DNA of 38,051 nucleotides from Lentisphaeria bacterium UBA1784. GTDB taxonomy: Bacteria > Verrucomicrobiota > Lentisphaeria > Victivallales > Victivallaceae. Below, piece by piece: positions 2,628 through 27,060 of this stretch (its first letter is position 1; every line of letters begins with the position of its first letter). The translations under genes and the position numbers were made by a program. The DNA lies in NCBI GenBank assembly GCA_002315455.1, contig DCGG01000175.1, positions 1 to 38,051 on the forward strand, read 5' to 3'. Below the pieces are notes generated by a model. The model searched no databases and had not been told where the DNA came from. It worked only from the letters and a program-made list of their open reading frames with translations.

Positions 2628-2779
2628 TCCCGGAAATGATATGCCATCCCTGCCTTGCAAAAAAACGTTTTACGACATAAGGATCATAAAAATGCAGAAA
2701 TTCTCCGTTGCGAACCACGGGGCCGGCATCCTCCCGGATGGCGAGAGGAAACTGGTCGGGAAATAGAAAACGGCAGACG

Positions 2780-3607
2780 ATGAAAATCCTTACGCAGCAG
2801 GACATCAAACGTTCTGAAATCGAGACGCTGCGGATCTTCCGCGACTTCTGCGACAAAAACCATTTGAGATATTATCTCGCCTTCGGGACTCTGCTGGGCG
2901 CAGTGCGGCACAAAGGTTTCATCCCTTGGGATGATGACGTTGACGTCTTCATGCCGCGGCCGGACTACAACCACCTCATCGCGCACTTCAATGATGCGGA
3001 CCAACACCGCAGAGAGGTCGTTTCCCGGCAGAATACCCCGGATTTCTATTTGAACAGCGCAAAGATCATCGACCGGAATACCGTCGTGCAGGAAACGGAA
3101 CGCTCTCTTGCTATCGGCGTCTGGATTGACGTCTTTCCCATGGACCTCCTGCCGGAAAACGCTCTGCTGCGCCGATGGGCGGTGTACCGCGTGTGGCTGC
3201 TGAATTTCCTGATCGCGCACTTTGTGCCCGCCGGCGGCAAGACCCGAGCATGGTACAAAAAACTCCTGTTCCGGCTTTGGCGGCTCGTCCGCCCGCCCAA
3301 ATCCAGGCTGGAGGCCCTGCTCAAAAAGGAAATGAAAAAATTGGAACGGAATCTTTCAGGCAGTTATTATGGCCTGCTGTACAAATACTTCTGGTATGCC
3401 GGGACCCCGATCTTTCCGGTTTCGGATTTTGAACCATCCGTGAAACTGGAATTCGAGGGAGAACACTACGATGCTCCGGCAGAGTATGATAAACTCCTCC
3501 GCCTGTGCTACGGCGATTATACGTCCCCGCCGCCGGCGGAACTTCAGAAAAGCCGTCATTCCTGCATTTGCTATTGGGATGATGCCTCCCCAAAGGAGCA
3601 GAAATGA
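2780..3607 (+). CDS. LicD-family phosphotransferase (nucleotidyltransferase fold; transfers a phospho-alcohol from a CDP-activated donor)
   Basis: N-terminal block LRIFRDFCDKNHLRYYLAFGTLLGAVRHKGFIPWDDDVDVFMPRPDY is the LicD signature, including the DDD-x-D acidic motif. I chose the ATG at 2780 (MKILTQQ) over the track start at 2708. The stop overlaps the next start (ATGA at 3604-3607). Confidence 0.8.
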   Translation: MKILTQQDIKRSEIETLRIFRDFCDKNHLRYYLAFGTLLGAVRHKGFIPWDDDVDVFMPRPDYNHLIAHFNDADQHRREVVSRQNTPDFYLNSAKIIDRNTVVQETERSLAIGVWIDVFPMDLLPENALLRRWAVYRVWLLNFLIAHFVPAGGKTRAWYKKLLFRLWRLVRPPKSRLEALLKKEMKKLERNLSGSYYGLLYKYFWYAGTPIFPVSDFEPSVKLEFEGEHYDAPAEYDKLLRLCYGDYTSPPPAELQKSRHSCICYWDDASPKEQK

Positions 3608-4011
3608 AACGTGTGCTGACGTTCGGCGTTTTCGACTATTTTCACATTGGACATCTGGCGCTTCTGGAACAGGCCCGGGAGCAAGGAGATTTTCTGATCG
3701 TTGCCGTGCAGAAGGACGAGGCAATCCGGAAATACAAGCCGGAGGCAAATGTGTTTTATTCCACGGCCCAGCGCGTGCGCCTGATCGAATCCCTGCGCCC
3801 GGTGGACCGCGTCGTGACCTATTCCGACGTGGATAAGGACATTCAGCGAATGGATTTCGACGTCTTCGCCGTAGGCGAGGACCAGATCCACGACGGATTT
3901 CAGCGGGCCATCCAATGGTGCTTGGGCAACGGCAAGAACGTCGTGCGGATGCATTACACGCAGGACATCTCCTCGACCGAACTGAAAAAACGGATCAAAG
4001 ACCTGTCATGA
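3604..4011 (+). CDS. Small cytidylyltransferase of the TagD/glycerol-3-phosphate cytidylyltransferase family
   Basis: 135 aa. Carries the HxGH motif in GVFDYFHIGHLALLEQA and a C-terminal ISSTELKKRI block resembling the RTxGISTT motif. Translationally coupled to the LicD gene. Confidence 0.85.
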   Translation: MKRVLTFGVFDYFHIGHLALLEQAREQGDFLIVAVQKDEAIRKYKPEANVFYSTAQRVRLIESLRPVDRVVTYSDVDKDIQRMDFDVFAVGEDQIHDGFQRAIQWCLGNGKNVVRMHYTQDISSTELKKRIKDLS

Positions 4012-5295
4012 AAGTTTCTTCCGGGCGCGCAGGATGATCAACATTTGCACGGGTAGCAACGCAAGGAAGGCATACTTTTCACCGCCCGGCCGCAGCAGAT
4101 AAAAAAGCCCAAACAGCCCCGGAACCGCAAGAAAAAGCACGACAGACAGCATGCTGTACAGCCCAATTTTTCCTTTTGGCACCAAACGCACCAGACAGAG
4201 ACTCGTGGTACTGGTCCCAACAATAAACGGGATCGCCAGCATCACGACCGGGATCAGTTCGTGATATCCTGCCGCGTCAGCGGCGCCGAACCAAGGCAGA
4301 ATCAAGCGGGGAAAGACAAAAACCGCGACCAAAATCGCTCCGATCCACGCCAAAGCGAAACAAAGTGATCGGTCATACACCATCTTCGCGCCCGCTTCGT
4401 CACCCGCGCCCAGACAGCGTCCGCCCAGCATGAGGGAAGTCTCTCCGGCCGCCAGAAACGCATAGTCCCCCGTGAGATAGATCATCATCACCACCGACCA
4501 GAAAAACAGCGCATTCTCGCCCTGAAACGCGAGAACGAGCCGGTTCATCGCGTATGCCATAATCATGTAGGCAAGAGTCACTGCGATGAATCCGGAACCG
4601 TAACGGATGTTGCCGCCAATGGTTCCGAGCAATCGCGCCAGGGAGCATTTCATGATCCGGAAGGGACAATCCTTGTGGCAATAGGCGGATAGCAGGATCA
4701 CTACTCCCGCCGTCGCGGAGAGCAAGGAGGAATACGCCAGCGCCTCGATGCCCAGTCCGAAGCCTTTGATCAACAGGAGATTGCAGGAGAGATTCACCGC
4801 GAATTGCCCCAGGGCAGAACACATCACCAGCACCGGGCGCCCGGACATGGCCGTAAACATGATGCCGATGACCAGTTCCCCGGCAACGATGAAATATGGT
4901 ACCATCGCGAAAAGATACCTTTGCGTCAATCCCCGCAGCCCGGAATTTCCGCACAGAAACTCCGTCAGGGGGCAGGAAAAAACACTGATTGCGGCCCCCA
5001 ACAGCAGCATCGCGGCAAGAGACGACACGGCGGCTCCCGTAAAATGCCGGCGCACCGCCGCCGCGTCGCCACGACCAAGCGCCAGAGAAGCCAGCGTGCA
5101 CGCCCCCATGCCGAACAGCATCGTCAGCGCATAAAACAATTCATACACCGGCATCACCAGTTCCACGACCGACACGGCATCGGCACCGAGCAGATTCCCG
5201 CCCACCGCGGCATCCACCACCATCGTGGCCTGCGAAGCGATCACGCAGACGAATATCGAGCCAAGATAGCGGGCATGTTCGAGTTTATTCATCAT
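4006..5295 (-). CDS. MATE/MOP-superfamily polytopic membrane exporter or flippase
   Basis: 429 aa and very hydrophobic, roughly 12 predicted helices by eye. The N-terminal pattern (ATMVVDAAVGGNLLGADAVSVVELVMPVYELFYAL...GMGACTLASLALGRGD) is MATE-like. The start overlaps the stop of the upstream carrier gene (ATGA at 5292-5295). Confidence 0.8.
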   Translation of the reverse strand: MMNKLEHARYLGSIFVCVIASQATMVVDAAVGGNLLGADAVSVVELVMPVYELFYALTMLFGMGACTLASLALGRGDAAAVRRHFTGAAVSSLAAMLLLGAAISVFSCPLTEFLCGNSGLRGLTQRYLFAMVPYFIVAGELVIGIMFTAMSGRPVLVMCSALGQFAVNLSCNLLLIKGFGLGIEALAYSSLLSATAGVVILLSAYCHKDCPFRIMKCSLARLLGTIGGNIRYGSGFIAVTLAYMIMAYAMNRLVLAFQGENALFFWSVVMMIYLTGDYAFLAAGETSLMLGGRCLGAGDEAGAKMVYDRSLCFALAWIGAILVAVFVFPRLILPWFGAADAAGYHELIPVVMLAIPFIVGTSTTSLCLVRLVPKGKIGLYSMLSVVLFLAVPGLFGLFYLLRPGGEKYAFLALLPVQMLIILRARKKLS

Positions 5296-5519
5296 TTGGA
5301 GAGGTATCGCTTCAGCATCGCCTCCATGGCCGCGACCGAGTTGAAATTCTCTTTGACGATTGAATCAAACGCGATCTCGACGTCAAATGCGTCATCAAAC
5401 TCCGCGATCAGCCGGATTACGGCAAGGGAGTTGATGTACCCGTCATCGACCAGCGCAGTGGACGTGACGTCGATGCCGCTGACGTTTTCCTTCAGGATCT
5501 TTTCAATGATTTTTTTCAT
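5292..5519 (-). CDS. Carrier protein (75 aa), D-alanyl-carrier (DltC)-like
   Basis: MKKIIEKILKENV...LVDDGYINSLAVIRLIAEFDDAFDVEIAFDSIVKENFNS. It has a Ser in a G-x-x-x-S-L context followed by an FD-V/I segment, as in DltC-type carriers (from memory). The ATG at 5519 overlaps the stop of the ATP-grasp gene. The 161-aa track ORF adds an Arg/Gly-rich extension that I reject. Confidence 0.75.
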   Translation of the reverse strand: MKKIIEKILKENVSGIDVTSTALVDDGYINSLAVIRLIAEFDDAFDVEIAFDSIVKENFNSVAAMEAMLKRYLSK

Positions 5520-6664
5520 GATCTGGCCTTTTTTCTGTTTTCCACCAGTTGCTCCACCGTTTCCAGCATGAACCCGTAAGGCACGTGGAAGCCGATCAGG
5601 TCCTCGAATTCCCGCTTCACCCCATGCCCAACGCACATCTGGAAGAAAAGCTCCCCGTTGGTGTTGCCTTCGATGATGCACCAGCCCTTTTCGGAATGCG
5701 CCACGTCCCACCCGATATAGCGGAGCGTCGGCAGTTTGAGGGCGGCCTCCTCCAGCATTTTTTTGAGTTCCGCCCACTGGGGCATGACGAAACCTTTGAT
5801 CTTAAGGCCGGATACCGGATGGCATTCCGTCGTTCCAATCGCGGTCATTCCATCCGTTACCACGATCCCGGTTTCGGCATCGATCAGGGCGTCCACGCTG
5901 TACATCTCGCCGGACTTTTCAATGCCGTCCCCCAGCATCAGCCGGAAAACGGGATGGAAGAAATGGACCTTCCCCTTGACCAGAATGGTCGTCACCCGGA
6001 GCACGGACATCTCTTTGGGATTGAAGGCGGCGATGGCTTGCGACGGAACGATCTCCTCCTCCAGAATGAGGCGGTGGTCGACGGGCCTTGTGACGTCCTC
6101 GCAGGAGAGGGCGGCGGCCTCCGTAAGGAGGGCGCGGAAAACCGCCTTCCGGTCGGTCGTTTCATCGACGGTCAGACGATGGACCCCTTCGGCGAGTTCG
6201 AGATTCACCGGCTTGACGAAGACCGAACGGTGTTTTGCCGTGAATGCGCAGAAGGCATCGAAATCCTCCTCCCCTGTGAGAAGCATCGCTTCGCGTTTGT
6301 AAAATGGCTTGAGGAGCGTGTAGGCTTCGAATTTGTTGTCGAGCCAATGCAGGTCCCGGTCCCTGTTCAGAAACGCCATGTAAATGAACCGGCTGAACCA
6401 GGTGACGTACTCCGCCTTCTGCGCGTGAGATAAATGCTCAAATCCATATATTCCGTATTCGAGAAAACTTGTGCCGTACATCTGCTGACAGTAGACCGCC
6501 TCGTAAAACATCTCGGCGAGGCGCTTTTCATCCGGCAGAAACTCAATGTACGTCCGCATGAAGTCATCCTGCATTCCGGCAGGATAACGCTCCGGGTTGT
6601 CCGCCATGATCTGCCGGGCGATCCGTTGGATCTCCTTTGGATCTTCCGTTATTTTGTATTTCAT
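5516..6664 (-). CDS. ATP-grasp enzyme of the sugar-transfer-associated type (Pfam ATPgrasp_ST / TupA-like as I recall them); biochemical function uncharacterised
   Basis: 382 aa. Contains SVFVKPVNLELAEGV, a C-terminal block LRYIGWDVAHSEKGWCIIEGNTNGELFFQ, and an N-terminal LDNKFEAY segment. Confidence 0.7.
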   Translation of the reverse strand: MKYKITEDPKEIQRIARQIMADNPERYPAGMQDDFMRTYIEFLPDEKRLAEMFYEAVYCQQMYGTSFLEYGIYGFEHLSHAQKAEYVTWFSRFIYMAFLNRDRDLHWLDNKFEAYTLLKPFYKREAMLLTGEEDFDAFCAFTAKHRSVFVKPVNLELAEGVHRLTVDETTDRKAVFRALLTEAAALSCEDVTRPVDHRLILEEEIVPSQAIAAFNPKEMSVLRVTTILVKGKVHFFHPVFRLMLGDGIEKSGEMYSVDALIDAETGIVVTDGMTAIGTTECHPVSGLKIKGFVMPQWAELKKMLEEAALKLPTLRYIGWDVAHSEKGWCIIEGNTNGELFFQMCVGHGVKREFEDLIGFHVPYGFMLETVEQLVENRKKARS

Positions 6665-6682
6665 AAAGTCATCTCAACTCTC

Positions 6683-6796
6683 TCAAAGCACGCAATAATT
6701 TTCATATGTCAACGCAAGGATGGAGTCCACGCATTTGCGAAGGTACCGCTCCACGTTGTAGATCGGAACGATGATGGAAATGAGGGAACGGGTCAT
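6683..6796 (-). pseudogene. Remnant of a family-2 glycosyltransferase (N-terminal 37 codons only)
   Basis: My own translation gives MTRSLISIIVPIYNVERYLRKCVDSILALTYENYCVL-stop. This is the canonical GT2 N-terminus (SIIVPxYNxExYLxxCxxSxxxQTYxNxE), but it stops just before the expected EIIxVDDGS motif. The ATG overlaps the ligase stop (ATGA at 6793-6796). It is below the size cutoff of the ORF track. Confidence 0.6.
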
Positions 6797-8199
6797 GGTG
6801 CCACCTCCTCCAGTTTCCCGTACTGCACTTTACCGCTCTCCAAACGGGGGATTTCGTCGACGTGCCATACCCGGAATGCCTTGCGGGGGATCATGGTACG
6901 GGAGGAAAGCAGGTCGATCACCGCCTCCTCATCGACACCGGCATCCGTGGTGAAGACCGTCAGATGAGAATCATCCCCCGTGCAGGCGCAATCCGTCAGG
7001 AACGGCTGCAGCATGAGTTCCGCGTGATCCAGACAGATCCTGATCCCGAAAAGTTTGATGAAACGCGACTTGCGCCCGGTAATAAAATAAAAGCCTTCGG
7101 CATCCCGGTACGCCATGTCGCCCGTGTGAATCACCCCTCGGTTTTCATCGCCTTTCGCAAGGTCTTCCGCACGCTCTGCATAACCGAGGCAAACGTTCGG
7201 ACCTTCATACACGAGTTCCCCCACGGTGTTGGATGCCGTGATCGGCTTCCCATTTTCATCCATGAGCGAAAGCCGGCCTCCGGGAATCGCCTCTCCGATG
7301 CTGCCCGCCTTGGTTGGAATGTACTCCGGATCAAGGTAAGCGATCCTCGCCGTGGCCTCCGACTGCCCGTACATCACGTAGAACTTCACGCCCCGGGGAC
7401 GAAACGTTTCATCAAAAAACAGGACGTGTTCCCGGTTCAGCGCGCCGCCCGCCTGCGTCAAAGTGCGCAGGGTCGGCATCTCCTGCTTCCATATCCCAAG
7501 TTTCCGGATCGTCTCGAATGCGTACGGCACCCCGGAATACGAGGTAAAACCGTTCCTTTTGGCGAAGTCCCAGAATTCACGCTGGACAAAGGCGTCTTCC
7601 GTCAGCAACAGCGTGGCTCCGGTCAACAGATGCGAGTTGATGATCGAGAGCCCGAAGGCGTAGTTCATCGGCAGTCCCAGAACGGGGCGCTCCCGGTCCG
7701 TGAGGTGGAGATACTCGATGATGGCGGCGGCGTTGGCGCGCAGGTTTTCTTTGCTCAACCGCACCAGCTTGGGCGAACCCGTACTGCCCGACGTCGCCAG
7801 CAGAAGCGCCAAATCGTCCGCGACGGCGGTCCCGTTTTCGCGAGTGTCCCAAAGAACGTAACTCTCCGCCTCGAAGATCCGGTCTGCTCCGCTGACCAGC
7901 CGGCAGTTCGCGGGAGCCCAGACGTATCGGGGACGATACACCTCCGCGATACTGTCGAACGACTTCTGCGTCATGCGGGCGTCCAGCAACAGCGTTGCAT
8001 CCCCGTTCCGCAGAAACGCGACGTAACCGGCGATTGCTCCGACGGAATTGCCGCAAAGCGAGAACACCAGCCGGTGCGGATCGGCATGATTTCCGATCCT
8101 CCCGGCGAGTCCGTCCAGTTCACCGTAGGTGATCGACCGCCCCGAAGAATGGATGCAGGCAGTCCTGTCTGCAAAAGGCCCGAAGTCAAAGATCACCAA
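6793..8199 (-). CDS. Adenylate-forming enzyme (ANL superfamily; acyl/aminoacyl-carrier-protein ligase, DltA-sized)
   Basis: 468 aa. Core motifs are LLATSGSTGSPKLVRL (TSGSTGxPK), YGQSEA, GDMAYRDAEGFYFITGRKSRFIKLFGIRI and C-terminal PRLESGKVQYGKL. The start is non-ATG (TTG at 8199 or GTG at 8196) and overlaps the SDR stop. Confidence 0.85.
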   Translation of the reverse strand: MVIFDFGPFADRTACIHSSGRSITYGELDGLAGRIGNHADPHRLVFSLCGNSVGAIAGYVAFLRNGDATLLLDARMTQKSFDSIAEVYRPRYVWAPANCRLVSGADRIFEAESYVLWDTRENGTAVADDLALLLATSGSTGSPKLVRLSKENLRANAAAIIEYLHLTDRERPVLGLPMNYAFGLSIINSHLLTGATLLLTEDAFVQREFWDFAKRNGFTSYSGVPYAFETIRKLGIWKQEMPTLRTLTQAGGALNREHVLFFDETFRPRGVKFYVMYGQSEATARIAYLDPEYIPTKAGSIGEAIPGGRLSLMDENGKPITASNTVGELVYEGPNVCLGYAERAEDLAKGDENRGVIHTGDMAYRDAEGFYFITGRKSRFIKLFGIRICLDHAELMLQPFLTDCACTGDDSHLTVFTTDAGVDEEAVIDLLSSRTMIPRKAFRVWHVDEIPRLESGKVQYGKLEEVAP

Positions 8200-8945
8200 A
8201 CGGAATATCCTCCATCAATCACCAGAGAGGTACCGGTCGTCCAGGCGGAGGCATCGGATATGAGATAAATGATTCCGTATGCGATCTCCTCAGGTTTTCC
8301 ATATCTGCCAAGAGGATATAACGTTTTGTCTTTTGCCAGATCCGCTTCCGATACAGCACCCCCATGAATCAAATCCGTTTCCACCATTCCCGGTTGGACG
8401 GCATTGACCCTGATGTTTCGCGGGCCAAGTTCCAGTGCGCAATAGCGCATAAAATTCGTAAGAGCGGCTTTTGATGCGCCGTAAATGCCGTTGCCGGCTA
8501 CCGCGCTGTCCGCAGCTGCGGATGAGGTGAAGACGATCGAACCGCCGGATTTGATTTTTTTCCGTTTCAGAAACGCCTTGATGATCAGCATCGGAGAAAA
8601 AGTGTTTATCCCAAAGACATAAGACAGGTCTTCCGGTTTGTAGAATGCGACCGGTTTCGTCACCACTACCCCCGCATTGCAGACAATTCCATCGACTTCC
8701 GGAGTTTTATCCGCCAATTTGTCGATTCCTTCCGGCTCAGCGAGGTCGGCAATGATCGAAAGATGCCCCTCGCCAGCAAGAGCGTCCAACGTTTCCTGCA
8801 GACGTTTTTCATTGCGTCCGGTGATGATGCAACGGGCGCCCAGTTTGGAGCATTCGACGGCGACGGCTCTCCCGATTCCGGAAGATGCGCCGGTGATCAG
8901 GATGGTCTTCTGCGTCAGAAAGAATGGATTTTCGATCACACCCAT
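8193..8945 (-). CDS. SDR-family oxidoreductase, 3-oxoacyl-ACP reductase (FabG)-like
   Basis: Has the TGASSGIGRA cofactor motif, the YGASKAAL catalytic Y-x3-K and an upstream SSAA serine. It overlaps the KAS III stop by 10 nt. Confidence 0.9.
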   Translation of the reverse strand: MGVIENPFFLTQKTILITGASSGIGRAVAVECSKLGARCIITGRNEKRLQETLDALAGEGHLSIIADLAEPEGIDKLADKTPEVDGIVCNAGVVVTKPVAFYKPEDLSYVFGINTFSPMLIIKAFLKRKKIKSGGSIVFTSSAAADSAVAGNGIYGASKAALTNFMRYCALELGPRNIRVNAVQPGMVETDLIHGGAVSEADLAKDKTLYPLGRYGKPEEIAYGIIYLISDASAWTTGTSLVIDGGYSVW

Positions 8946-10000
8946 GGGGAAATCTCCTTATCTTCCACTTCAACAAGATCGGAAATGACCAAATGCTCCG
9001 TCTCAAACGCAACGGTTCCCCAGGAAAGCCCCACGCCGAAACCGCAACAGATGAATTTGTTTTTTCTATCTGCGGCGCCTTTGAGCTGTGTGACGATCGT
9101 GAGCGGAATGGACGCCGATGAGGTGTTTCCGAACGATTGGATGCTGGAAGGCACTTTTTCCGGCGCAAGTTTCAGTTTTTTGGCGATCACGTTGTTCAGC
9201 ATCTTATTGGCCTGATGAAACACAAACCAGTCGTAATCAAGGTAGTCAAAACCGAAATGTTCGCCGAGCAGTCTGACGGACTTCGGCGCCGTCGTAATGC
9301 CGAATGCGAAAATATCCATCCCCTTCATATACCCCTGAATACGGGTATATTTCATGCCGTCGATCTCCTGCTGTGCAAAGGAGTTCTGGCTGATACCGTT
9401 ACGGCAACCGCCATCCGGGACAATCAGCGAATCATAACCGCGGCCGTCCGTGCCGAAATGAAATCGGAACCCTTCCGCCCCTTCGGAATACTCCAGAGCG
9501 GTCACCGTTCCCGCGTGTCCGAAAAGCGGGGATTTATCAGGCACGACACCTTTTGCATCACCGGTCAGAAGCAGAGCCTTTCGGATCGAGCCGGAAGACA
9601 GGAGAGAAGCCGCATTGCTTAAACCATAGACCCAGCCGGAACACCCGAGAGAAACGTCTTCCGCATAGCACTCCTCGCTCAATCCAAGCCGGTACTGCAA
9701 AATGCACGCGGTGGCAGGCAAGATATAATCAGGAGTCTGCGATACAAAGAGAAGCGCATCGATCTCTTCTTTCGCCCAGCCGAGGTCTGCAATCAACTTT
9801 TCCGCCGCCTCATAACACAAGTCGGAGGTGGTGAGTCTGTCGCTGTAGCGAAGTTCCCTGACACCGGTCGTCTGAATGAATTCTTCAGCTGAATACTTGA
9901 TGTCCGGATAATCCTCATTCGCAAGATTATCAACGGCATTTTTCGGGACTCCGGCGGAGATGCCGGCGATCCTGACGTTTTTGATACTTAAATATGCCAT
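8936..10000 (-). CDS. 3-oxoacyl-ACP synthase III (FabH-like KAS III)
   Basis: 354 aa. The catalytic triad is visible: Cys in SLGCSGWVYG, His in VFHQANKML, Asn in FGNTSSASIPL. The ATG at 10000 lies 3 nt after the ACP stop. Confidence 0.9.
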   Translation of the reverse strand: MAYLSIKNVRIAGISAGVPKNAVDNLANEDYPDIKYSAEEFIQTTGVRELRYSDRLTTSDLCYEAAEKLIADLGWAKEEIDALLFVSQTPDYILPATACILQYRLGLSEECYAEDVSLGCSGWVYGLSNAASLLSSGSIRKALLLTGDAKGVVPDKSPLFGHAGTVTALEYSEGAEGFRFHFGTDGRGYDSLIVPDGGCRNGISQNSFAQQEIDGMKYTRIQGYMKGMDIFAFGITTAPKSVRLLGEHFGFDYLDYDWFVFHQANKMLNNVIAKKLKLAPEKVPSSIQSFGNTSSASIPLTIVTQLKGAADRKNKFICCGFGVGLSWGTVAFETEHLVISDLVEVEDKEISPWV

Positions 10001-10003
10001 GAT

Positions 10004-10237
10004 CTACAACTTGGTGATGATGCACTTATATACATCCTCGACAGTGACCGCGTTATGAAGATCGTTTCCGCTGATGGTAACGCCAAATTCATCGTCGACC
10101 ATCGCGATGACGGAAAGGGCGGTCAGGGACGACCACTGCTCCAGATCGTGAAATACCGTATCCGCTTTAATGGTCGCGGGTTCCGTCCTGAAGAATTGCT
10201 CTGCGAAAAGAACAACAAATTCATCCAATGTTTTCAT
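10004..10237 (-). CDS. Acyl carrier protein (77 aa)
   Basis: MKTLDEFVVLFAEQF...DLEQWSSLTALSVIAMVDDEFGVTISGNDL shows the carrier-protein helix II pattern with a candidate phosphopantetheine Ser. I chose the internal ATG at 10237 over the track start at 10300. Confidence 0.8.
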   Translation of the reverse strand: MKTLDEFVVLFAEQFFRTEPATIKADTVFHDLEQWSSLTALSVIAMVDDEFGVTISGNDLHNAVTVEDVYKCIITKL

Positions 10238-10337
10238 GATCCGTTTTCCAGTTTTGGTACCAAAAGATGTCCGGCAGTACGTTTTTGCTGTAATATACAA
10301 TGCTCCGAGAGAGTTGCAAGTCCGTTTCCCAAAATTA

Positions 10338-10997
10338 TTAAAATTCTGTTTTTACGGCAGGGACCCCCATATAAAGGAATCCGTCCCTGGGATTGGTCAT
10401 AAGCGTGCTGCCGGCAACAAGTTTGACGTGATGGCCGATGACAATATGCGGGATGACGATGCTTCCGGTGCCGAAGAAATTGCATTCCCCGATCTTGACG
10501 TAACCGGAAATCCTCACTCCGCCTTTGAAGGAATTGAAGGAACCGATTCCGACGTCATGCCCGAGAACGACGTCGCCATTGAACACGTTGAAATCACCAA
10601 TGTGCACGTCACAGGTGGCGGAACAGCCGCTCTTAATGATGTTCCCCTTGCCGATCACAAAAGACTCCGGATCATCCGAGAATGCACCGTAAGGATGAAT
10701 CAGATTCGGGAACCAAAGACGATCGTTGGCGATGGCGTCATAGACTTTTTTCACTTCCAGGGGATCACCGATCGTCAAGGCAACGGCAAGTTCCCGGTCC
10801 CACGCGTTCAATTCGCCGAGCCCGCCGAAACAGGGGCCGAAATGGGAGACCTGCGTCCCTTTCTGCGCGGGATTGCTGTCGAAGAAACCGATCAGATTCC
10901 ACGTGGGCTTCTGCTCGTTGATCCGCCGGATCATGCAGGCGACTTCCCTCCCGAAGCCGCCGGCTCCGTAAAGTGCAATGTCTTTCAATTCCGCCAT
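10338..10997 (-). CDS. Sugar N/O-acyltransferase of the NeuD/PglD family (left-handed beta-helix)
   Basis: The N-terminus LYGAGGFGREVACMI is the Rossmann-like PglD_N-type segment. The C-terminal half has hexapeptide repeats (IGDFNVFNGDVVLGHDVGIGSFNSFKGGVRISGYVKIGECNFFGTGSIV). Confidence 0.85.
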   Translation of the reverse strand: MAELKDIALYGAGGFGREVACMIRRINEQKPTWNLIGFFDSNPAQKGTQVSHFGPCFGGLGELNAWDRELAVALTIGDPLEVKKVYDAIANDRLWFPNLIHPYGAFSDDPESFVIGKGNIIKSGCSATCDVHIGDFNVFNGDVVLGHDVGIGSFNSFKGGVRISGYVKIGECNFFGTGSIVIPHIVIGHHVKLVAGSTLMTNPRDGFLYMGVPAVKTEF

Positions 10998-11378: not shown

Positions 11379-12038
11379 TCATTTGCAGGAGCGGTACGCT
11401 CCCGGAGACACGCCGGTCGCCTTCTTGAACGCTTCGGAGAAAACGTAGCGGTCCGCGAAACCGCAGGCTTCCGCGATCTCCCCGATCCCTGCAGAACCGC
11501 AGGAGAGCATGGTCCGGGCCTTTTCCATGGCGAGCGCCAACGCGAACCGGTGGGGCGTGACGCCGGTCTCCTCCTTGAACCTGCACTGGAAAATTGCGGC
11601 GGACATGCCGATCTTCCAGCAGATCTCCTCCCGTTTCAGACCTTGATTCATCAGGTGCATGGCGCGCTGTATCCGGTCATCCGCCTGTTCGCCGGCGGCG
11701 AAGAAGTGACTTGCCGGAATGGCGGCAAGCGCTGAAAAGACAAGGGCGTACACCGTCGCATCCGAGAAGGTCTCCTGTCCCATCAGGAGAGGCAGAACTC
11801 CGCAGAGACTTCGATCGAAGAGTATCACTTCCGGTTTCACCTGCGAGTATGGGAGACCGGCATGGAAGTGGACGTAGAGATGGTCGAAGGGCGCTTCGCA
11901 GGTACTGCGGCAAGGGGTATGAGGGGGGATCAGCACGATCTCCCGTCCAGTGGGGCGGACTTTCCTGCCGCCGAAATCCAGACAGGCCCCCGGTCCGGCG
12001 TAGTAGTAAAGGAACCGGGGGAAATTGGTCTGCGTCAC
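11379..12038 (-). CDS. AraC-family transcriptional regulator (cupin-like N-domain plus double HTH)
   Basis: The C-terminal segments GMSAAIFQCRFKEETGVTPHRF and IGEIAEACGFADRYVFSEAFKKATGVSPGAYR form the AraC HTH signature. A GTG start at 12038 overlaps the upstream stop. Confidence 0.85.
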   Translation of the reverse strand: MTQTNFPRFLYYYAGPGACLDFGGRKVRPTGREIVLIPPHTPCRSTCEAPFDHLYVHFHAGLPYSQVKPEVILFDRSLCGVLPLLMGQETFSDATVYALVFSALAAIPASHFFAAGEQADDRIQRAMHLMNQGLKREEICWKIGMSAAIFQCRFKEETGVTPHRFALALAMEKARTMLSCGSAGIGEIAEACGFADRYVFSEAFKKATGVSPGAYRSCK

Positions 12039-13921
12039 TCCCGTTCTTTGCAGAAACGGCGTGCCGCCTCCGCGTTCGCCGCGTAACCGGGATTGGCAGG
12101 TTCCAGCGCCTGCGCCCGCCGGAAGGCGAGTGACGCCTTCTCGTGGTTTCCGAGGCAGAACTCCGCGATTCCGAGGGCGTTCCAGTTCTTCGGGTCCGCA
12201 GGAGCGTAATAGACCGCGGTGGACTCCAGACGCTTCGCATCTTCGTATTTTTCCCGCCGGATCTGAAGCAGTCCGTAGTTGCAGGCCGCCTGCGAAGGAT
12301 CGTTCCCCAGCATCATCGCGCGCTCAAAACACGCCTCCGCCTCGTGATAGCGGGTCTTTTCTCCGTAGAGCATCCCCAAACGCATCCACGCCTCGGGATG
12401 CAGCGGCTCCGCTTCCGCCGCGTCTCGGTACCATTTCTCCGCCGTCAGCAGATCGCCGCGCTCCTCCGCGATCCGGCCAAGCAGACAGGAAGTCCGGGGA
12501 GGATCGTTCAACTTCCGGGCAGAGTAAGCCAGCAGATCTTCGGCAAGGTCAAAATTCCCCCGACGGAATGCCGCCTCCCCCCAGAGTGCGGCCGCCTCGA
12601 TCTTCCCCGCGGCCATGAAGGGAAAACTGAAGGGAAGCGAAAGCAGAACAGCCAAAGCAGGAAGGCTCCACCAGCGTTTCCAATTCATGGCATCCATCCC
12701 CAGCGCCGCAAGCACAAGGATCCCCGGCCACGCCCCCATCCGGAAGTTTCCGCAGGAAAAGGTGAGGAGCGTCCCGATCCAGAAAGCACCGACAAGCAAA
12801 AGCGCTGGCAGATATTCTCTCCGCCGCCGCACGACTTCCCACGTCCCGATGAACGCAAGAAGAAATACCGCTGGGACTACGCTTCTCCCCCAAAAAACGT
12901 AGTCGGTTTGGCAGATCAGGATCCCCGGATCGGCTCCGGATGGCAGTTCGTTGGGGTGGAAGAAATACACCGCCTTGCGGGCCAGCAGGACCAATCCCTT
13001 CCACGGATGCTCCTTCCAAAACGCGCCCGCTTTCTCCAGCCATACGCGCGGGGGAGAGACCTGACGCGCCTTCGCCTCCTGTGCGGTCTCCCGGCGGACC
13101 TGCCTCAACTTCTGCCCGGGAGCGAGGTTGCAATACCCCTTGGCCTGCGGATTGTTCCCGAGCCAAACGAGGAAGGCGGCATTGGACTGCACCCCCGTCA
13201 ACTGCACATAGCGAACGCTCTTGGCCGCAATGACCGGCAGAAGCAACAGCAACGCGCCGCACAGCACGCAGACAAGATGTTTCCACTTTTTCCGGCAACA
13301 TGCGGCGGTGGAAACCGCCGCAAGAAAGCAAAACGCAAGTCCATGGGTCAGCACTCCAAGCCCGCAAAAAAGCCCACTCGCAAAGGCGGGCACGCATCCG
13401 CCCGTCCGGCAGGCACGAAGCAGAAACGCCAGCGCCAGCGTCATCTCGGGGAACAGCAAACTCGCCGGGACCAGTTCCGCCTGAAAGTAAATGAGGTTGG
13501 GCAGAAGCACCATTCCCGCGAGAAACCAGCCGCAGAGCGAACGCTTCCAGCCGTTCCGATACAGTTCCAGCGCGAGCACGAATGATGCGGGGAGACTCAG
13601 CAAAAGCGTGACCGCCCGTGCCGCCGGGACCGGTGCCCAGGGAAAAAACCGATAGACTCCGGCGAGAAAGAAACTGTACAGCGGCGCATGTTCCTCCGGC
13701 CTCAAGGGGAAAAGAACTCCGCCGAGGATCTCTCTCGCCCGCTGATCGTATTCTGCGACGTCAGGGCCAAGCGCAAAGGAAAAAAGAGGCGAGGAGGAAA
13801 ACTCCCGCAGATATTCCGCGCGTGCAAAGATCCCCAAAAGAAGCGGGAACCACCACCAGAAATTCTCCTGCAGAAGCCGGGAAACGGTGCGGAACTTCCC
13901 TGCCTGTGCCCGTTCGTCCAT
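12035..13921 (-). CDS. GT-C fold (PMT_2/ArnT-like) membrane glycosyltransferase fused to C-terminal TPR repeats
   Basis: 628 aa with a polytopic N-terminal two-thirds and an early loop EEHAPLYSFFLAG. The C-terminal 200 aa or so are clear TPRs (AEKWYRDAAEAEPLHPEAWMRLGMLY, EACFERAMMLGNDP, NWNALGIAEFCLGNHEKASLAFRRAQALEP). Confidence 0.75.
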   Translation of the reverse strand: MDERAQAGKFRTVSRLLQENFWWWFPLLLGIFARAEYLREFSSSPLFSFALGPDVAEYDQRAREILGGVLFPLRPEEHAPLYSFFLAGVYRFFPWAPVPAARAVTLLLSLPASFVLALELYRNGWKRSLCGWFLAGMVLLPNLIYFQAELVPASLLFPEMTLALAFLLRACRTGGCVPAFASGLFCGLGVLTHGLAFCFLAAVSTAACCRKKWKHLVCVLCGALLLLLPVIAAKSVRYVQLTGVQSNAAFLVWLGNNPQAKGYCNLAPGQKLRQVRRETAQEAKARQVSPPRVWLEKAGAFWKEHPWKGLVLLARKAVYFFHPNELPSGADPGILICQTDYVFWGRSVVPAVFLLAFIGTWEVVRRRREYLPALLLVGAFWIGTLLTFSCGNFRMGAWPGILVLAALGMDAMNWKRWWSLPALAVLLSLPFSFPFMAAGKIEAAALWGEAAFRRGNFDLAEDLLAYSARKLNDPPRTSCLLGRIAEERGDLLTAEKWYRDAAEAEPLHPEAWMRLGMLYGEKTRYHEAEACFERAMMLGNDPSQAACNYGLLQIRREKYEDAKRLESTAVYYAPADPKNWNALGIAEFCLGNHEKASLAFRRAQALEPANPGYAANAEAARRFCKERE

Positions 13922-14903: not shown

Positions 14904-16691
14904 TTACGGTTTGATCCGGTAAAGAGGATGCGCCGGAAAGAGCGTGTGAGCCTTCCTCCGGTGGAACTGCGCGGACCCGGTGTCCCCTTCCTTCGCCGCC
15001 AGAAGCGCGAGCCGCCAATGGAGCGCCGCCTGATCGGGATCCCGGGCAAGCGCCGCATCATAGAAACCGCGGGCGGCGGAAAGTTCCCCCGCCTCCCAGA
15101 AGTAGTCCCCCGCCAGCCACGGCGGATAGGCGCTCCACGGACGGAACCGGAGACACTCCCCATAGGCCGCAAGGACCGCTTCCGGATGGTTCCGGCTGTA
15201 CCGGATCATTTCGCCATCCTGCGGCTGAACGAGAGCGGAAAGGTTCCCGAATGCGTACTCTCCCGCCAGCCACCATCCATTGGCGCCGGCGGCGGCGATG
15301 CCAATGAGAAGCAGTGCCGCCATCCGAACGTTCCGCCAGGTGCCGGACGCCGGATGCGGAGCCTCCTGGTCATTGGGGAGCAGAACTGCAAGTTCCACGA
15401 GGATCAGCGCCGCAAGCGTCGCCGGGATGTGGATTCCGATGTCCATGAGCAGATGAAGCGTTAACGCGGTACAACTCCAGAATCCGGCCTTGTACCACCG
15501 CCCCCGCCTCCGGAGCTTCCACATTCCGGCAAGCGGGACCAGCAGTGCCGCCGCGGCAAGGAGTCCGCCGGGGATACCGCACTGGGCGGAAAAGGAAGCG
15601 ATGAGATCGTGAGGGTCCCGGGCGGATTCATCGGAGCCGGAGCGCTTGATGCGCTGGTGAGTGTGGTAGAACGCGCCCCATCCCGCCCCCAGCGGATGAT
15701 GCCGCACCATGTACAGCGAAGTACGGAGATAATCCGCCCGTTCTCCGGTGGAGAGGAATCCCCGCTCGCTTTGATGGACGTAAAAGGCCCCTGCCCCCAG
15801 GAGCAGAAGAAGCATTCCGGCGATCCACCAGCGGACCGCCAGGGAGAGTTTGCGGTCGAGGAGCCATCCCGTCCCGGCCACCGCCGCGCAGACGAAGGCA
15901 CCCCGGCTCCGGGTCAGGGCAAGAACCCCAATGGTCAGCAGAAAAACGCCGGTCCCCAGGACGATCCGGGAGAGCCGCTTCGGCTCGAAGTGATCCCCGG
16001 CGCGGACCGCACACAAGACGGCAACAGGCGCCCCCAGAAGCAGGAACCCGGCGAGAGCGTTGCAGGAGACCATGGGTCCATAGACCCGGTTGTCTGCCAG
16101 ACGCGCGAGAATGACCGGATTGATGCGGACCCCTTCCGCCTGCTGTTGCGCCACGTACGCCCGGGTAGCCGCCATGCCGATGAAGTATTGATAGGTTCCG
16201 CAGAGGCAGGTGAGCAGAACGCCTGCCGCCAAGGCGATCACGGCAGGTCTCCACCACCGGGGTGCCCGGGAAAACAGAAGCGCCGCACCGCCGGCAAAGG
16301 CTCCAACGGCGAAGAAGTGGGAAACGGCTCCGAAGACGAAGTCCGGCGTTCCCCGGCCACCCAGCAGAGCGGCCAGCGGAAGCCCGGCCGTCCAGAGCAA
16401 AGCGGATACGGTTCCCCAGCCTCTCCGGTGCGGCAGACCGCATCCGAAGAGGGCGGCCAGCAGAAGGAGTCCGGAAAAGATCCCGAAGGTGTGGGCGGGC
16501 CAGCTGATGATGGACCATGCCGCCCACGAAACGTCGAGGAAGCCAGAGGCATCCGGCATCACCGCAAGCGATCCGAACTTCAGCGGCAGAAGAAAGGTCC
16601 CGAGCACCAGCAGAACGCCGGTCAGCCGGACGCCGAAAGGCTCCGGTCCGCCGTTATCCGTGCGTGCAGCCGGCGTCAGGGAGTGGTTCAT
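14904..16691 (-). CDS. O-antigen-ligase-like (Wzy_C domain) polytopic membrane protein fused to C-terminal TPR-like repeats
   Basis: 595 aa with many TM segments, LTRSRGAFVCAAVAG and a periplasmic-loop His region. The C-terminal segment YFWEAGELSAARGFYDAALARDPDQAALHWRLALLAAKEGDTGSA is TPR-like. The ATG overlaps the purU stop (ATGA at 16688-16691). Confidence 0.7.
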   Translation of the reverse strand: MNHSLTPAARTDNGGPEPFGVRLTGVLLVLGTFLLPLKFGSLAVMPDASGFLDVSWAAWSIISWPAHTFGIFSGLLLLAALFGCGLPHRRGWGTVSALLWTAGLPLAALLGGRGTPDFVFGAVSHFFAVGAFAGGAALLFSRAPRWWRPAVIALAAGVLLTCLCGTYQYFIGMAATRAYVAQQQAEGVRINPVILARLADNRVYGPMVSCNALAGFLLLGAPVAVLCAVRAGDHFEPKRLSRIVLGTGVFLLTIGVLALTRSRGAFVCAAVAGTGWLLDRKLSLAVRWWIAGMLLLLLGAGAFYVHQSERGFLSTGERADYLRTSLYMVRHHPLGAGWGAFYHTHQRIKRSGSDESARDPHDLIASFSAQCGIPGGLLAAAALLVPLAGMWKLRRRGRWYKAGFWSCTALTLHLLMDIGIHIPATLAALILVELAVLLPNDQEAPHPASGTWRNVRMAALLLIGIAAAGANGWWLAGEYAFGNLSALVQPQDGEMIRYSRNHPEAVLAAYGECLRFRPWSAYPPWLAGDYFWEAGELSAARGFYDAALARDPDQAALHWRLALLAAKEGDTGSAQFHRRKAHTLFPAHPLYRIKP

Positions 16692-23949: not shown

Positions 23950-24750
23950 TTACTTCGTAGTGGTCGTGTGAGACAAATCTTCCTGCAGGGTCGTCTCGAT
24001 CTCCACGGAGGAGTCCCGCAGCTCGCCGGGGCCCATTATCCGGGAACTGCCATCGGCCATGCCGACCACGGTCGTTCCCTTATGGATCATTGTGATCAGA
24101 CCTTTTCCTTCTTTGCTGCCGGCAGAAAAGCGGTCATACGTGTTGGGAGAGGGCGCTCCCGATATGAAGGTATCGGCGAAGATGATCAGATTGGCAGGAT
24201 CCTTCATGCGCATGAGATTGTAGGAGACCGTCTTCTTGTCCTTATAGGAGCGGAAGCGGCCGACGACTTCGATCACGTCCTTATCATCCTTTGTCTTCCC
24301 AGTGTACCAACTGTCGCTTTTTTCTGAAAGATCCAGCATTCCCACGGCATTGGCTCCACTGGTATAGAGAAAATGCATATCTGCTTCCGTACACAACAGT
24401 ATCTTGTCTTCCGGCATGTAGCCGATCGCTCCTCCAATACGAATTTCCTTATCCGTCAACTTCTTTCTGCCCGTTTTGCCGCTCAAAATCATGGCGTAGT
24501 TCGCATTGCTCGCAGCCTTTTTTTCATCGACATCCTTGCCGTATGACTTCAGCAGGAACGGGATGTGCTGCTTGTTGTCGCCGGCGTACTGCAAAGCGGC
24601 GAGCCCCAACTGATGGCGGTTGTTGACGCAATCCGTACGGACGCTGGTGGCCCGGGCTCCGCCGAGGGCGGGCATGATCATGCCGGCCAGAACACCGATG
24701 ATACCGATGACGACCAGAAGTTCCACCAGAGTGAAAGACGATTTTTTCAT
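23950..24750 (-). CDS. Prepilin-type N-terminal cleavage/methylation-domain protein with H-X9-DG motif (DUF1559-like pseudopilin paralogue)
   Basis: The leader MKKSSFTLVELLVVIGIIGVLAGMIMPAL is the class III signal. IHKGTTVVGMADG matches H-X9-DG. I chose the ATG at 24750 over the track start at 24804. Confidence 0.85.
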   Translation of the reverse strand: MKKSSFTLVELLVVIGIIGVLAGMIMPALGGARATSVRTDCVNNRHQLGLAALQYAGDNKQHIPFLLKSYGKDVDEKKAASNANYAMILSGKTGRKKLTDKEIRIGGAIGYMPEDKILLCTEADMHFLYTSGANAVGMLDLSEKSDSWYTGKTKDDKDVIEVVGRFRSYKDKKTVSYNLMRMKDPANLIIFADTFISGAPSPNTYDRFSAGSKEGKGLITMIHKGTTVVGMADGSSRIMGPGELRDSSVEIETTLQEDLSHTTTTK

Positions 24751-25007
24751 AGAGTTCTCCCGTTTTGTTTCCAAAGGAATCCTGTCAGAATCCACAACTT
24801 GCACGGCTTAAGATACACCGAAGACAGACAAAATGCAAATCTCTCCGGAGGCTCCGGCTGACAAACTTTTCATTAATTATGTGAGTTTTCTGCGATTTGT
24901 CAACGTTTTTCCGGCGATCCCCTTGCAAAAAAGGGAAAGAAAGAGTATCTTGAGCAAGGAACACTCTTTTGTTGTCAAGGATTTCATTCAACGAGGTCGT
25001 AACATAT

Positions 25008-25787
25008 ATGCCGGATGCGCCGCTTCTCACCATTCTCATCCCGAATTACAAGACGGAGGCCATGACCAAGCTCTGTCTGCGGTTGCTCCGGTGCCATACC
25101 GACCTCAGTTGCGTCCGGGTCATCGTCATTGACAACCAGTCAGAAGACGGGTCCGTGGAATACCTCCGGAGCGTCAGGTGGATCGACCTGCTGGAGCGCA
25201 GAACCGATGGCGAGAACGGCCCCGAGATGCACGCACGCGCCCTCGACGAAGCTCTCGCGCAGGTGACCACCCCCCTCGTCATGGTCATGCACACCGACAC
25301 CCTCGTCATCCATGACGGATGGCTGGACTACCTTCTGCAGGAACTGGGCGACGATCCCAAGTGCGCCGGAGTCGGCAGCTGGAAGATGGAGATCGTCTCC
25401 CCGCTGAAATACGTCGGCAAGTTCATCGAGGAATTCTTCCGGCGCTGCATCGGACGGCAACAAAAGGCGGAGGTCCGCTACCTCCGGAGTCACTGTGCGC
25501 TCTACCGCACGGGACTTCTCAGGCAATACACCAATGGATTCTTCGACGGCGACACCGCCGGACGCTCCCTCTTCCTTGCGCTGGAGCAGGCGGGATATCA
25601 TTTCAAATTCCTGCCGACGAAGGAACTGATGCGCTGGCTCCGGCACCTGAACCACGCCACCATGATTCTCAATCCCCGGCCCGGCGACCGCAAGACGGCA
25701 CGTTCTTCCGCAAGACGCCGGGTCCTGCGGGAACTGGAGTGCATGGACTACAGAAAGATCCTCGACGACGACACTCTCGACGCCTGA
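25008..25787 (+). CDS. Family-2 glycosyltransferase
   Basis: LLTILIPNYKTEAMTKLCLRLL...VIVIDNQSEDGS is the GT2 N-terminal fold signature, and MVMHTDTLV supplies the DxD-like region. The ATG is at 25008. Confidence 0.8.
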   Translation: MPDAPLLTILIPNYKTEAMTKLCLRLLRCHTDLSCVRVIVIDNQSEDGSVEYLRSVRWIDLLERRTDGENGPEMHARALDEALAQVTTPLVMVMHTDTLVIHDGWLDYLLQELGDDPKCAGVGSWKMEIVSPLKYVGKFIEEFFRRCIGRQQKAEVRYLRSHCALYRTGLLRQYTNGFFDGDTAGRSLFLALEQAGYHFKFLPTKELMRWLRHLNHATMILNPRPGDRKTARSSARRRVLRELECMDYRKILDDDTLDA

Positions 25788-26868: not shown

Positions 26869-27060
26869 GATCGATCCGTCCTTTCTGCTTTCGTATTGAT
26901 CCGGTTTTCTCTGCACGTTCATAATGTAGCGGATTCTCCGCGATTTGTCAACCGGGAAGTCCATCCTTTTCTTTGCGATATTTCCCCGGAATGTGCTTGC
27001 AATCCCGGAAAATCAGGCTATATTCAAACCCGGAGACACAAATCGACAAGGAGGCAGATC

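Follow-up and report, generated by a model that had tools for sequence, protein, structure and literature searches.

A mosaic operon of Lentisphaeria bacterium UBA1784 and its proposed role in acyl decoration of a surface glycan

What is built, and onto which molecule is it placed, by an operon that holds two carrier proteins, a condensing enzyme with its reductase, an adenylating ligase, an ATP-grasp enzyme, a PglD-like N-acyltransferase and a membrane transporter? This question is raised by a series of minus-strand genes in Lentisphaeria bacterium UBA1784 (assembly GCA_002315455.1, contig DCGG01000175.1), which lies in a stretch of 38,051 nucleotides that was analysed at its full length and is called the window here. 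An original prediction, made from the letters of the DNA, had read the series as an envelope-glycan decoration system for acyl or aminoacyl groups. Our analysis retains a coherent operon for acyl decoration of a glycan, as opposed to housekeeping lipid synthesis, with the correction that the group attached appears to be acyl rather than aminoacyl. We propose, at a probability of about 0.5, that this one operon builds an acyl donor and places the group on an amino sugar of a surface glycan, its two halves acting together.

Layout of the operon and recurrence of its gene set

The open reading frames (ORFs) run without a break on the minus strand from 10997 to 4006, each at its predicted coordinates, and the block is one operon of eight intact genes and one gene fragment. 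From the first gene to the last, with the Pfam families matched, these are:

10338..10997, minus strand: PglD/NeuD/VioB-family left-handed beta-helix N-acyltransferase, 219 aa, first gene (PF17836 PglD_N, PF00132 Hexapep)
10004..10237, minus strand: ACP1, a dedicated acyl carrier protein, 77 aa (PF00550 PP-binding)
8936..10000, minus strand: KAS III-type condensing enzyme (KAS3 in gene orders), 354 aa (ACP_syn_III, PF08545; ACP_syn_III_C, PF08541)
8193..8945, minus strand: FabG-like short-chain dehydrogenase (SDR), a ketoreductase, 250 aa (PF13561; PF00106 adh_short)
6793..8199, minus strand: ANL-superfamily adenylating ligase (LIG), about 467 aa (PF00501 AMP-binding)
6682..6796, minus strand: N-terminal fragment of a GT2 glycosyltransferase, 37 codons (PF00535)
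5516..6664, minus strand: ATPgrasp_ST-family ATP-grasp amide ligase (GRASP), 382 aa (PF14397)
5292..5519, minus strand: ACP2, a small carrier protein, 75 aa (PF00550 PP-binding)
4006..5295, minus strand: MATE-like (MOP superfamily) membrane transporter, 429 aa, last gene (PF01554 MatE)

The first four genes (PglD-ACP1-KAS3-SDR) are referred to as Part A and the other four intact genes (LIG-GRASP-ACP2-MATE) as Part B, of which ligase, ATP-grasp and ACP2 form the trio.

The evidence that this combination is more than an accident of one genome comes from a second locus. The gene-order survey that had been suggested retrieved L133, an independent metagenomic contig of 11 kb and 59% GC with the order LIG-GRASP-ACP2-GT2-PglD-ACP1-KAS3-SDR-MATE and overlapping junctions. 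Since L133 holds orthologues of all eight proteins, in an order different from that of the window, the eight-gene set is regarded as a recurring, selected unit. Identities between window and L133 lie at 63% for PglD, 66% for ACP1, 73% for KAS III and 69% for SDR in Part A, and at 61% for the ligase, 66% for the ATP-grasp, 64% for ACP2 and 60% for the MATE-like protein in Part B. The GT2 of L133 is full-length (314 aa), whereas the permuted window operon retains only the stub of an apparently different GT2.

Profile searches placed all eight genes above the Pfam gathering score for the families that the original prediction had named, and the catalytic motifs it had reported for KAS III, SDR and ligase are intact in the translations. 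The candidate carrier serines of ACP1 (EWSSL) and ACP2 (INSL) proved invariant across orthologues. Furthermore, reading of the sequence bore out the ATGA overlaps at 6793-6796, 5516-5519 and 5292-5295, the KAS III/SDR overlap at 8936-8945, the SDR/ligase overlap at 8193-8199 and the 3-nt gap at 10001-10003. The description as nine ORFs with tight junctions holds for the coordinates; it has to be amended in that the block consists of eight genes plus a GT2 fragment and that PglD and ACP1 are separated by 100 nt. Likewise, the ATGA at 6793-6796 is present but couples the ligase stop to the GT2 fragment and not to the ATP-grasp gene, whose start at 6664 lies 17 nt beyond the fragment. The fragment itself, which had been overlooked as a truncated gene inside the operon, matches PF00535 with 29.1 bits over profile positions 1-30 of 168 and then ends in a stop codon read in the sequence. 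It was called identically in two independent assemblies, and it is a gene remnant and rearrangement scar. Derivation from the L133 GT2 was considered and found no support: the similarity is of the generic N-terminal kind (9/24 residues) and the two are not clearly orthologous. A tblastn match to the fragment beside the ligase of L061 turned out on inspection to be a LuxE protein.

The gene arrangement is taken as real and not as an assembly artefact because both halves of the operon are matched at 100% identity by contigs assembled from four other samples (14841-6648 and 6602-6); the only stretch not covered by an independent contig is 6603-6647. An assembly chimera at the ligase/ATP-grasp junction was rejected, since the contigs ending at 6648 already contain the ATP-grasp start codon and the ATP-grasp N-terminus aligns with homologues from residue 1. 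The independent assemblies (L044, L046, L048, L049) break inside the first 20 codons of the ATP-grasp gene; two Logan contigs stop at 6648 and another begins at 6602, while in the JGI contig L049 the 51 bases upstream of 6499 bear no relation to the window. These breaks suggest strain-level variation or a variant junction in the population.

Within the operon, searches for internal terminators or promoters gave nothing above shuffled background, and none of the terminator candidates was convincing (16 weak pattern matches versus 10.5 ± 4.1 expected). Rfam at gathering threshold revealed no riboswitch or leader RNA and matched a distant tRNA alone, and the search for repeats or insertion scars flanking the modules returned short chance-level matches only. 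A 16-nt inverted repeat, 88% complementary, links the two non-coding gaps of the operon, at 6675-6690 upstream of ATP-grasp and at 10301-10316 upstream of ACP1, and is probably due to chance. The GC content at third codon positions (GC3) is 56-67% in Part A, 69-73% in Part B and 71-83% in the flanks, a contrast that fits a mosaic with its seam at 8193-8199. Recombination within the ligase gene was rejected by sliding-window identity, which is closest to ATP-grasp-linked ligases over the full length; the seam is therefore placed at or near the SDR/ligase junction and not inside the gene.

The two cassettes and their relatives

Judged by profiles and gene neighbourhoods, Part A is a widespread O-antigen/capsule cassette. 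Its PglD-like protein scores 34.4 bits with PF17836 and 32 bits with PF00132, and 135 bits with TIGR03570 NeuD_NnaD against a cut-off of 160.8. The best solved relatives are VioB (7txp), PerB (4ea7) and PglD (3bss), all of which act on nucleotide 4-amino sugars, and the catalytic His in LGHDV aligns with that of VioB and PerB. ACP1 matches PF00550 with 28.1 bits and falls under every AcpP equivalog cut-off; gene callers in other assemblies pick the identical 77-aa ORF, and its serine is invariant in the orthologues from L133, L085, L050, L115 and L037. The condensing enzyme (PF08541 79 bits, PF08545 35.5 bits; best PDB matches 4efi and 3gwa) has an intact triad of Cys in LGCSG, His in FHQAN and Asn in GNTSSAS, and is not considered a housekeeping FabH because it reaches 156 bits with FabH TIGR00747, for which the cut-off is 292. 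It is 73% identical to its L133 counterpart and 58-64% identical to those of L050, L085 and L115. The SDR scores 185 bits with PF13561 and 151 bits with PF00106 and shows the motifs TGASSGIG and YGASK.

A scan of metagenomes with the ligase profile returned 80 loci, in which the neighbours were counted: an SDR was found in 45, a PglD-like gene in 22, KAS III in 15, an ACP1-like gene in 11 and MBOAT in 2. L085, L050 and L115 are collinear with the window over PglD-ACP-KAS3-SDR-LIG, continue with another KAS III and with a carrier unlike both ACP1 and ACP2, and also hold DegT, Bac_transf, Wzy_C, Polysacc_synt_3, a pyruvyl transferase and several glycosyltransferases. In a Prevotella-type version (L037, L102, L107) a distant ATPgrasp_ST member stands beside PglD-ACP-SDR-SDR-LIG-ACP-KAS3, flanked by WbsX, GT4 and a CapD-like dehydratase. 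The idea that a ligase and second carrier next to PglD-ACP-KASIII-SDR form an unusual fusion was therefore given up: this is a common metagenome cassette found in canonical O-antigen/capsule loci. Another variant of a ligase-centred acyl cassette, also in polysaccharide-type loci, was seen in L061, where a LuxE acyl-protein synthetase comes after the homologous ligase (11407-12486).

The ligase opens Part B. It matches PF00501 with 141.5 bits and carries the motifs TSGSTGSPK and GRKSRFIKLFGIRI and a terminal SGK; its start is more likely the GTG at 8196, giving a GTGA overlap, because orthologues begin M-FDF. Loading of the DltA/DltC kind had been expected of ligase and ACP2, an expectation that fails for the substrate. 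With the DltA equivalog TIGR01734 the ligase scores 85.9 bits against a cut-off of 559.85, and its nearest solved structures are the oxalate-CoA ligase 5ie0 and the malonyl-CoA ligase 3nyq, with DltA well below. In DltA and in the adenylation domains of nonribosomal peptide synthetases, an Asp in the A4 region binds the amino group of the substrate. At that position the ligase family has the invariant motif N/Y-Y-x-x-G-L-S (here N-Y-A-F-G-L-S), and because it contains no acidic residue an alpha-amino acid substrate is unlikely; on the evidence of these motifs and scores the ligase is not DltA-like and aminoacyl loading by it is unlikely. Over its full length it is 60-68% identical to the ligases that precede ATP-grasp genes in L001, L004, L005, L132, L133, L137 and L138. 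ACP2 scores 27.1 bits with PF00550 and matches DltC weakly (NF003464, 26.1 bits versus a cut-off of 68); it belongs to a carrier family separate from that of ACP1. Its orthologues, 44-65% identical and with an invariant Ser in the INSL motif, adjoin GRASP in 15 loci and always stand beside this ATP-grasp clade.

The ATP-grasp protein matches PF14397 with 99.9 bits (cut-off 31.4), and a sequence search of the PDB gave no match. Its AlphaFold2 model (pLDDT 89.3) has as top Foldseek matches D-Ala-D-Ala ligases, LysX/ArgX (crystallised with the carrier LysW), RimK and DcsG at TM scores of about 0.4, and because its nearest folds are Ddl, LysX/ArgX, RimK and DcsG the protein is predicted to be a carboxylate-amine ligase. 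Invariant residues include K151, E202, D320, E332 and N334. The family is large, with 11,404 representatives at E ≤ 0.001 and 1,632 at E ≤ 1e-30, and some proteins carry tandem domains or fusions to GT2, to PGA_cap (poly-gamma-glutamate capsule protein) or to BspA-type leucine-rich repeats (P0141, P0143, P0145, P0184, P0209, P0246). The tandem, GT2 and PGA_cap architectures would fit amide decoration of surface polymers. As regards glycosyltransferases, the window has the 37-aa GT2 stub only, L133 a full GT2, and L037 glycosyltransferases on the flanks of its distant member; the constant partners of the window clade are ACP2 and the ligase, not a glycosyltransferase.

ATPgrasp_ST neighbourhoods were sampled in about 135 loci, with homologues of the window protein found down to about 33% identity. 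In 13 loci with a GRASP identity of at least 41% and sufficient flanking sequence, out of 15 that are informative, the neighbourhood holds ACP2, an adenylating ligase, a DHHW/AlgX-like protein with the YKTDHHWN motif and an MBOAT protein, the latter two always in the operon of the trio and never elsewhere. This usual partnership had gone unnoticed, and the pair is absent from the window: three MBOAT and three DHHW sequences, taken from sister loci, had no tblastn match in the 38 kb. The closest set (L001, L005, L137, L138), which is probably from Bacteroidales/Rikenellaceae, reads LIG-GRASP-ACP2-DHHW-MBOAT-MATE, with orthologues of the window ligase (60-68%), ACP2 (62-65%) and MATE-like protein (57-58%). 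L133 likewise lacks MBOAT and DHHW, and its block GT2-PglD-ACP1-KAS3-SDR sits exactly at the DHHW-MBOAT position of L005, L137 and L138. More distant versions of Part B in Lentisphaeria and Clostridia also encode a transporter of the EamA type and, in many cases, a divalent-anion/Na+ symporter; in some of them the ligase comes from another family, closest in structure to 4-coumarate-CoA ligases and not to DltA. Part B with MBOAT and DHHW has a Dlt-like architecture, yet neither ligase family is DltA; from its neighbourhoods Part B (ligase-ATPgrasp_ST-ACP2-MATE) is a portable unit. The symporter (Na_sulph_symp/CitMHS) recurs inside or close to operons with this ATP-grasp family in L002 (16590-17864), L003 (16663-17955), L016, L018 and L040, and its recurrence may point to a di- or tricarboxylate substrate. 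In L137 (4871-6291) the MBOAT gene is split into two ORFs of 132 and 329 aa and may be a pseudogene or reflect a sequencing error.

The transporter had been taken for a MATE/MOP exporter of the glycan system. A MatE match stands (PF01554, 42.8 bits, N-terminal half only), although the protein remains under the NCBIfam MATE cut-offs (TIGR00797, 29.5 bits versus 147.4); glycan export is only a possible role. No match to Polysacc_synt or MurJ was found at E ≤ 0.01, so that by any model tested it is not a Wzx-type flippase. Its clade comprises about 19 clusters of 47-62% identity and ends the LIG-GRASP-ACP2-DHHW-MBOAT operons of L005, L137 and L138 as well as L133. Relatives of 60% identity in L130 (3507-4706) and L136 (8360-9580) come directly after radical-SAM (plus PqqD) genes, a context resembling that of ribosomally synthesised and post-translationally modified peptides, and another in L131 follows a ligase and GNAT pair. 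Because members of the clade also follow radical-SAM/PqqD and ligase/GNAT genes, the protein resembles a transporter of small solutes that several operons have recruited, and not a Wzx.

Proposed pathway and competing explanations

From these parts we infer, as set out below, the substrates, the sequence of reactions, the interplay of the two carriers and the role of the transporter. The ligase would adenylate a small carboxylic acid, probably not an alpha-amino acid and maybe a di-acid or hydroxy-acid, and load it onto ACP2, and the ATP-grasp enzyme would use ATP to form a single amide bond, on the carrier-bound unit or, prior to loading, on the acid itself. In Part A, KAS III would condense a primer with malonyl-ACP1 and the reductase would yield a 3-hydroxyacyl thioester, so that KAS III, reductase and ACP1 may supply or extend a 3-hydroxyacyl chain. 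The PglD-family enzyme would then attach the finished group to a nucleotide-linked 4-amino sugar, at its amino group, the sugar being supplied by genes located elsewhere in the genome. The MATE-type protein may move a small solute that is a precursor, a product or a by-product. In most relatives, the cargo of ACP2 would pass to MBOAT and the DHHW/AlgX-like protein for acylation outside the membrane; in the window and L133, Part A would replace this pair, making delivery cytoplasmic. The expected product would be a composite N-acyl substituent, for example a hydroxyacyl-aminoacyl or malyl-type group. Composite N-acyl groups on amino sugars are chemically documented, namely N-(3-hydroxybutyryl)-L-alanyl, N-acetyl-alanyl and malyl (PMC3210612), and groups of that kind are without assigned genes.

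Several observations weigh against such cooperation. Apart from the window, the full set was retrieved from L133 alone, and the L133 trio is closer to MBOAT-type loci than to the trio of the window; the association may have arisen twice, or reflect frequent cassette shuffling and swapping of delivery blocks rather than tight functional coupling. The "ACPb" found behind the ligase of the common cassette is of another carrier family than ACP2, and any hand-off from ACP2 to KAS III or to PglD would be hypothetical. The sole glycosyltransferase of the operon is broken, and relatives of the MATE-like protein occur in unrelated operons too. In addition, Pfam and tblastn searches found no DegT aminotransferase, initiating transferase (Bac_transf) or Wzx in the 38-kb window. 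That the block itself lacks aminotransferase, initiating transferase and Wzx had been pointed out before, and this extends to the whole window, in which the only genes of an acceptor-sugar or assembly type are an epimerase/dehydratase, a GT2 (24969-25787) and a Wzy_C protein.

The separate carrier families of ACP1 and ACP2 and the GC3 difference between the parts would also be expected if two independent decoration systems shared a promoter, with Part A producing a plain 3-hydroxybutanoyl-type amino sugar and the trio feeding MBOAT and DHHW proteins elsewhere for a Dlt-style O-acylation. Part A is complete without the trio, as in the wfpC-G genes of Flavobacterium psychrophilum, and MBOAT and DHHW do accompany the trio in 13/15 informative loci. 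This is unlikely in our view: neither MBOAT nor DHHW occurs in the 38 kb, the sister-locus MBOAT/DHHW genes are always in the operon of the trio, and L133 has again lost exactly that pair with Part A in its place, which looks like the substitution of one delivery route by another.

Alternatively, the product could be a small secreted metabolite, an N-acyl amide or short lipo-amino acid exported by the MATE-like protein, with no glycan decoration involved. The block is without sugar-pathway genes, the combination of ligase, carrier, KAS III, ketoreductase and ATP-grasp resembles small natural-product logic, and the transporter has the relatives behind radical-SAM/PqqD and ligase/GNAT genes described above. 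We nevertheless judge this quite improbable: the transferase belongs to the NeuD/PglD/VioB family, of which all solved relatives act on nucleotide amino sugars, homologous cassettes are located in canonical polysaccharide loci, sister operons use polymer-acylating MBOAT and AlgX-like proteins, L133 includes a GT2, and LicD and a cytidylyltransferase are encoded next door.

Very unlikely, too, is a state of decay in which Part B would be a relic left after the loss of MBOAT/DHHW and rearrangement, with only Part A at work. It would explain the truncated GT2 within the operon and the absence of both cargo-delivery proteins known from the relatives, and the split MBOAT of L137 indicates that decay occurs in the family. 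All four frames of Part B are, however, full-length with every catalytic or invariant residue intact, the start/stop overlaps are preserved, and L133 keeps the same four genes intact, likewise without MBOAT. Finally, housekeeping synteny of common genes for fatty-acid or lipid A synthesis (FabH, FabG, AcpP, LpxA/D), to which the shared domain families of FabH, FabG and ACP and weak LpxA/LpxD matches might point, is effectively refuted, as all NCBIfam equivalog scores are far under the cut-offs (FabH 156 versus 292, FabG 136 versus 298, AcpP 17 versus 70, LpxD 29 versus 242), FabD, FabF, FabZ and FabI are absent, GC3 is atypical and orthologues are found in polysaccharide loci. A single operon whose two parts cooperate in glycan acylation is the reading preferred here.

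Genomic surroundings, related systems and significance

Outside the operon, the following features were located in the window:

2708-4011, plus strand: overlapping pair of a LicD-family phosphotransferase (PF04991, 150 bits) and a 135-aa TagD/RfaE-II-like cytidylyltransferase
11379-12038, minus strand: AraC-family regulator (PF12833, PF00165)
14904-16691, minus strand: Wzy_C (O-antigen ligase-like) protein, 595 aa, with C-terminal TPR repeats
23950-24804: protein with a prepilin-type N-methylation motif
24969-25787: GT2 glycosyltransferase
25870-26964: epimerase/dehydratase
34468-34540, plus strand: tRNA

The LicD/cytidylyltransferase pair lies downstream and is convergent with the MATE gene, their stop codons overlapping at 4006-4011; it is found beside the operon in two other assemblies too (L048, L049) and looks like a second glycan-decoration module, of the CDP-alcohol/phospho-alcohol type, adjoining the operon. 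Upstream, the neighbours are the AraC regulator, a TPR protein, HPr, a phosphoribosyltransferase, the Wzy_C+TPR protein and PurU. A non-coding region of 380 nt (from 10998, ahead of the AraC gene) contains two weak sigma-70-like matches, and from position it is possible that this region and the AraC regulator are promoter and regulator of the operon. Many large ORFs without a Pfam match are spread across 17561-38043, a picture in keeping with an organism of the PVC group.

In butirosin biosynthesis (BtrI/BtrJ/BtrK/BtrH), an ATP-grasp enzyme works on ACP-tethered substrates and the finished acyl group goes from the ACP to an amino group of the amino sugar; this is an aminoglycoside antibiotic pathway and does without a line of KAS III and ketoreductase, an ANL ligase and a PglD-type transferase. 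In the tetronate genes rfbK-O of Vibrio cholerae O1 and in AlmEFG lipid A glycylation, a carrier and an AMP-forming ligase supply an unusual acyl group, which an acyltransferase places on perosamine (Rfb) or lipid A (Alm). Both lack ATP-grasp, KAS III and MATE, and they differ further by the transferase families (Alm) or by additional reductases (Rfb).

The closest parallel to Part A is provided by wfpC-G of F. psychrophilum, where two KAS, an ACP, a ketoreductase and a PglD homologue correlate with a 3,5-dihydroxyhexanoyl group on Qui2NAc4N, an assignment made by genetics and structure correlation and not by enzymology (PMC6519341). As in the window, a PglD homologue, a dedicated ACP, KAS III-type synthase(s) and a ketoacyl-ACP reductase are united in one locus, and the hydroxyacyl group is predicted to be built on the ACP and transferred to the 4-amino group of UDP-Qui2NAc4N. 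In contrast to the window, wfpC-G has two KAS instead of one, no ligase, ATP-grasp, second carrier or MATE, and pglE/pglF-type sugar genes alongside, which the window lacks. For Part B, the counterpart is Dlt together with the MBOAT-SGNH acyltransferases PatA/PatB and AlgI/J/X (PMC12148441, PMC11035591), in which an adenylating ligase loads a small carrier, as is proposed here. The sister loci L005, L137, L138, L002 and others, with MBOAT and an AlgX/DHHW-type SGNH-like protein, reproduce this Dlt-type architecture. The window departs from it by having no MBOAT or SGNH-like protein, by a ligase that is not a DltA orthologue and probably uses no alpha-amino acid, and by ATP-grasp and MATE as constant extra members; no paper describing a Dlt-type system with ATP-grasp and MATE was found in the literature searched. 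With regard to the ATP-grasp chemistry, the only characterised analogue found is the C-terminal TupA-like ATP-grasp of Campylobacter jejuni Cj1438, which amidates a capsule glucuronate carboxylate (PMC11800379, citing Riegert et al. 2022). The likeness consists of an ATP-grasp in a surface-polysaccharide locus, an amide decoration and a GT2 fusion as in some ATPgrasp_ST proteins; the differences are the family (TupA-like PF14305 versus ATPgrasp_ST PF14397) and the action on a glycan carboxylate, with no carrier or ligase partner.

Literature searches on ATPgrasp_ST/PF14397, on ATP-grasp with MBOAT and a carrier protein, and on O-antigen with ACP, 3-oxoacyl and an AMP-dependent ligase returned nothing relevant, and no publication on the gene set was found in the literature searched; the combination is apparently undescribed, as had been suggested. 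What is new is the joining of a known sugar-acylating cassette to a little-studied mobile trio of ligase, ATP-grasp and carrier, both cassettes being widespread and recognisable. What makes the set interesting is chiefly the trio, which is uncharacterised and has two alternative routes of delivery. Tentatively, and with more doubt than confidence, ligase, ATPgrasp_ST and ACP2 (with MATE) may be seen as an unrecognised, horizontally mobile donor-building module, pluggable into an MBOAT/AlgX-like or a KAS III/PglD route. Its ATP-grasp would form an amide on or for an acid tethered to the carrier protein; the first route would acylate polymers beyond the membrane, the second would N-acylate nucleotide amino sugars in the cytoplasm.

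Odd N-acyl groups on O-antigens and capsules (hydroxybutyryl-alanyl, malyl, acetyl-alanyl) shape antigenicity and the recognition by phages and the immune system, and the genes for most of them are unassigned; with the operon and its relatives, a compact set of genes is at hand in which such chemistry can be tested. The trio would extend Dlt-type systems beyond D-alanine and would give ATPgrasp_ST, a family of more than 10,000 representative sequences with no studied member found, its first functional context. That the same trio is wired to two delivery systems in gut anaerobes from several phyla (Bacteroidales, Lentisphaeria, Clostridia) points to a modular, exchangeable toolkit for surface decoration. 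If the proposal of a mobile donor-building module is true, it would supply the biosynthetic logic that is so far missing for composite acyl groups of bacterial glycans, among them hydroxyacyl-aminoacyl and malyl-type ones, as well as a new, carrier-dependent branch of ATP-grasp chemistry.

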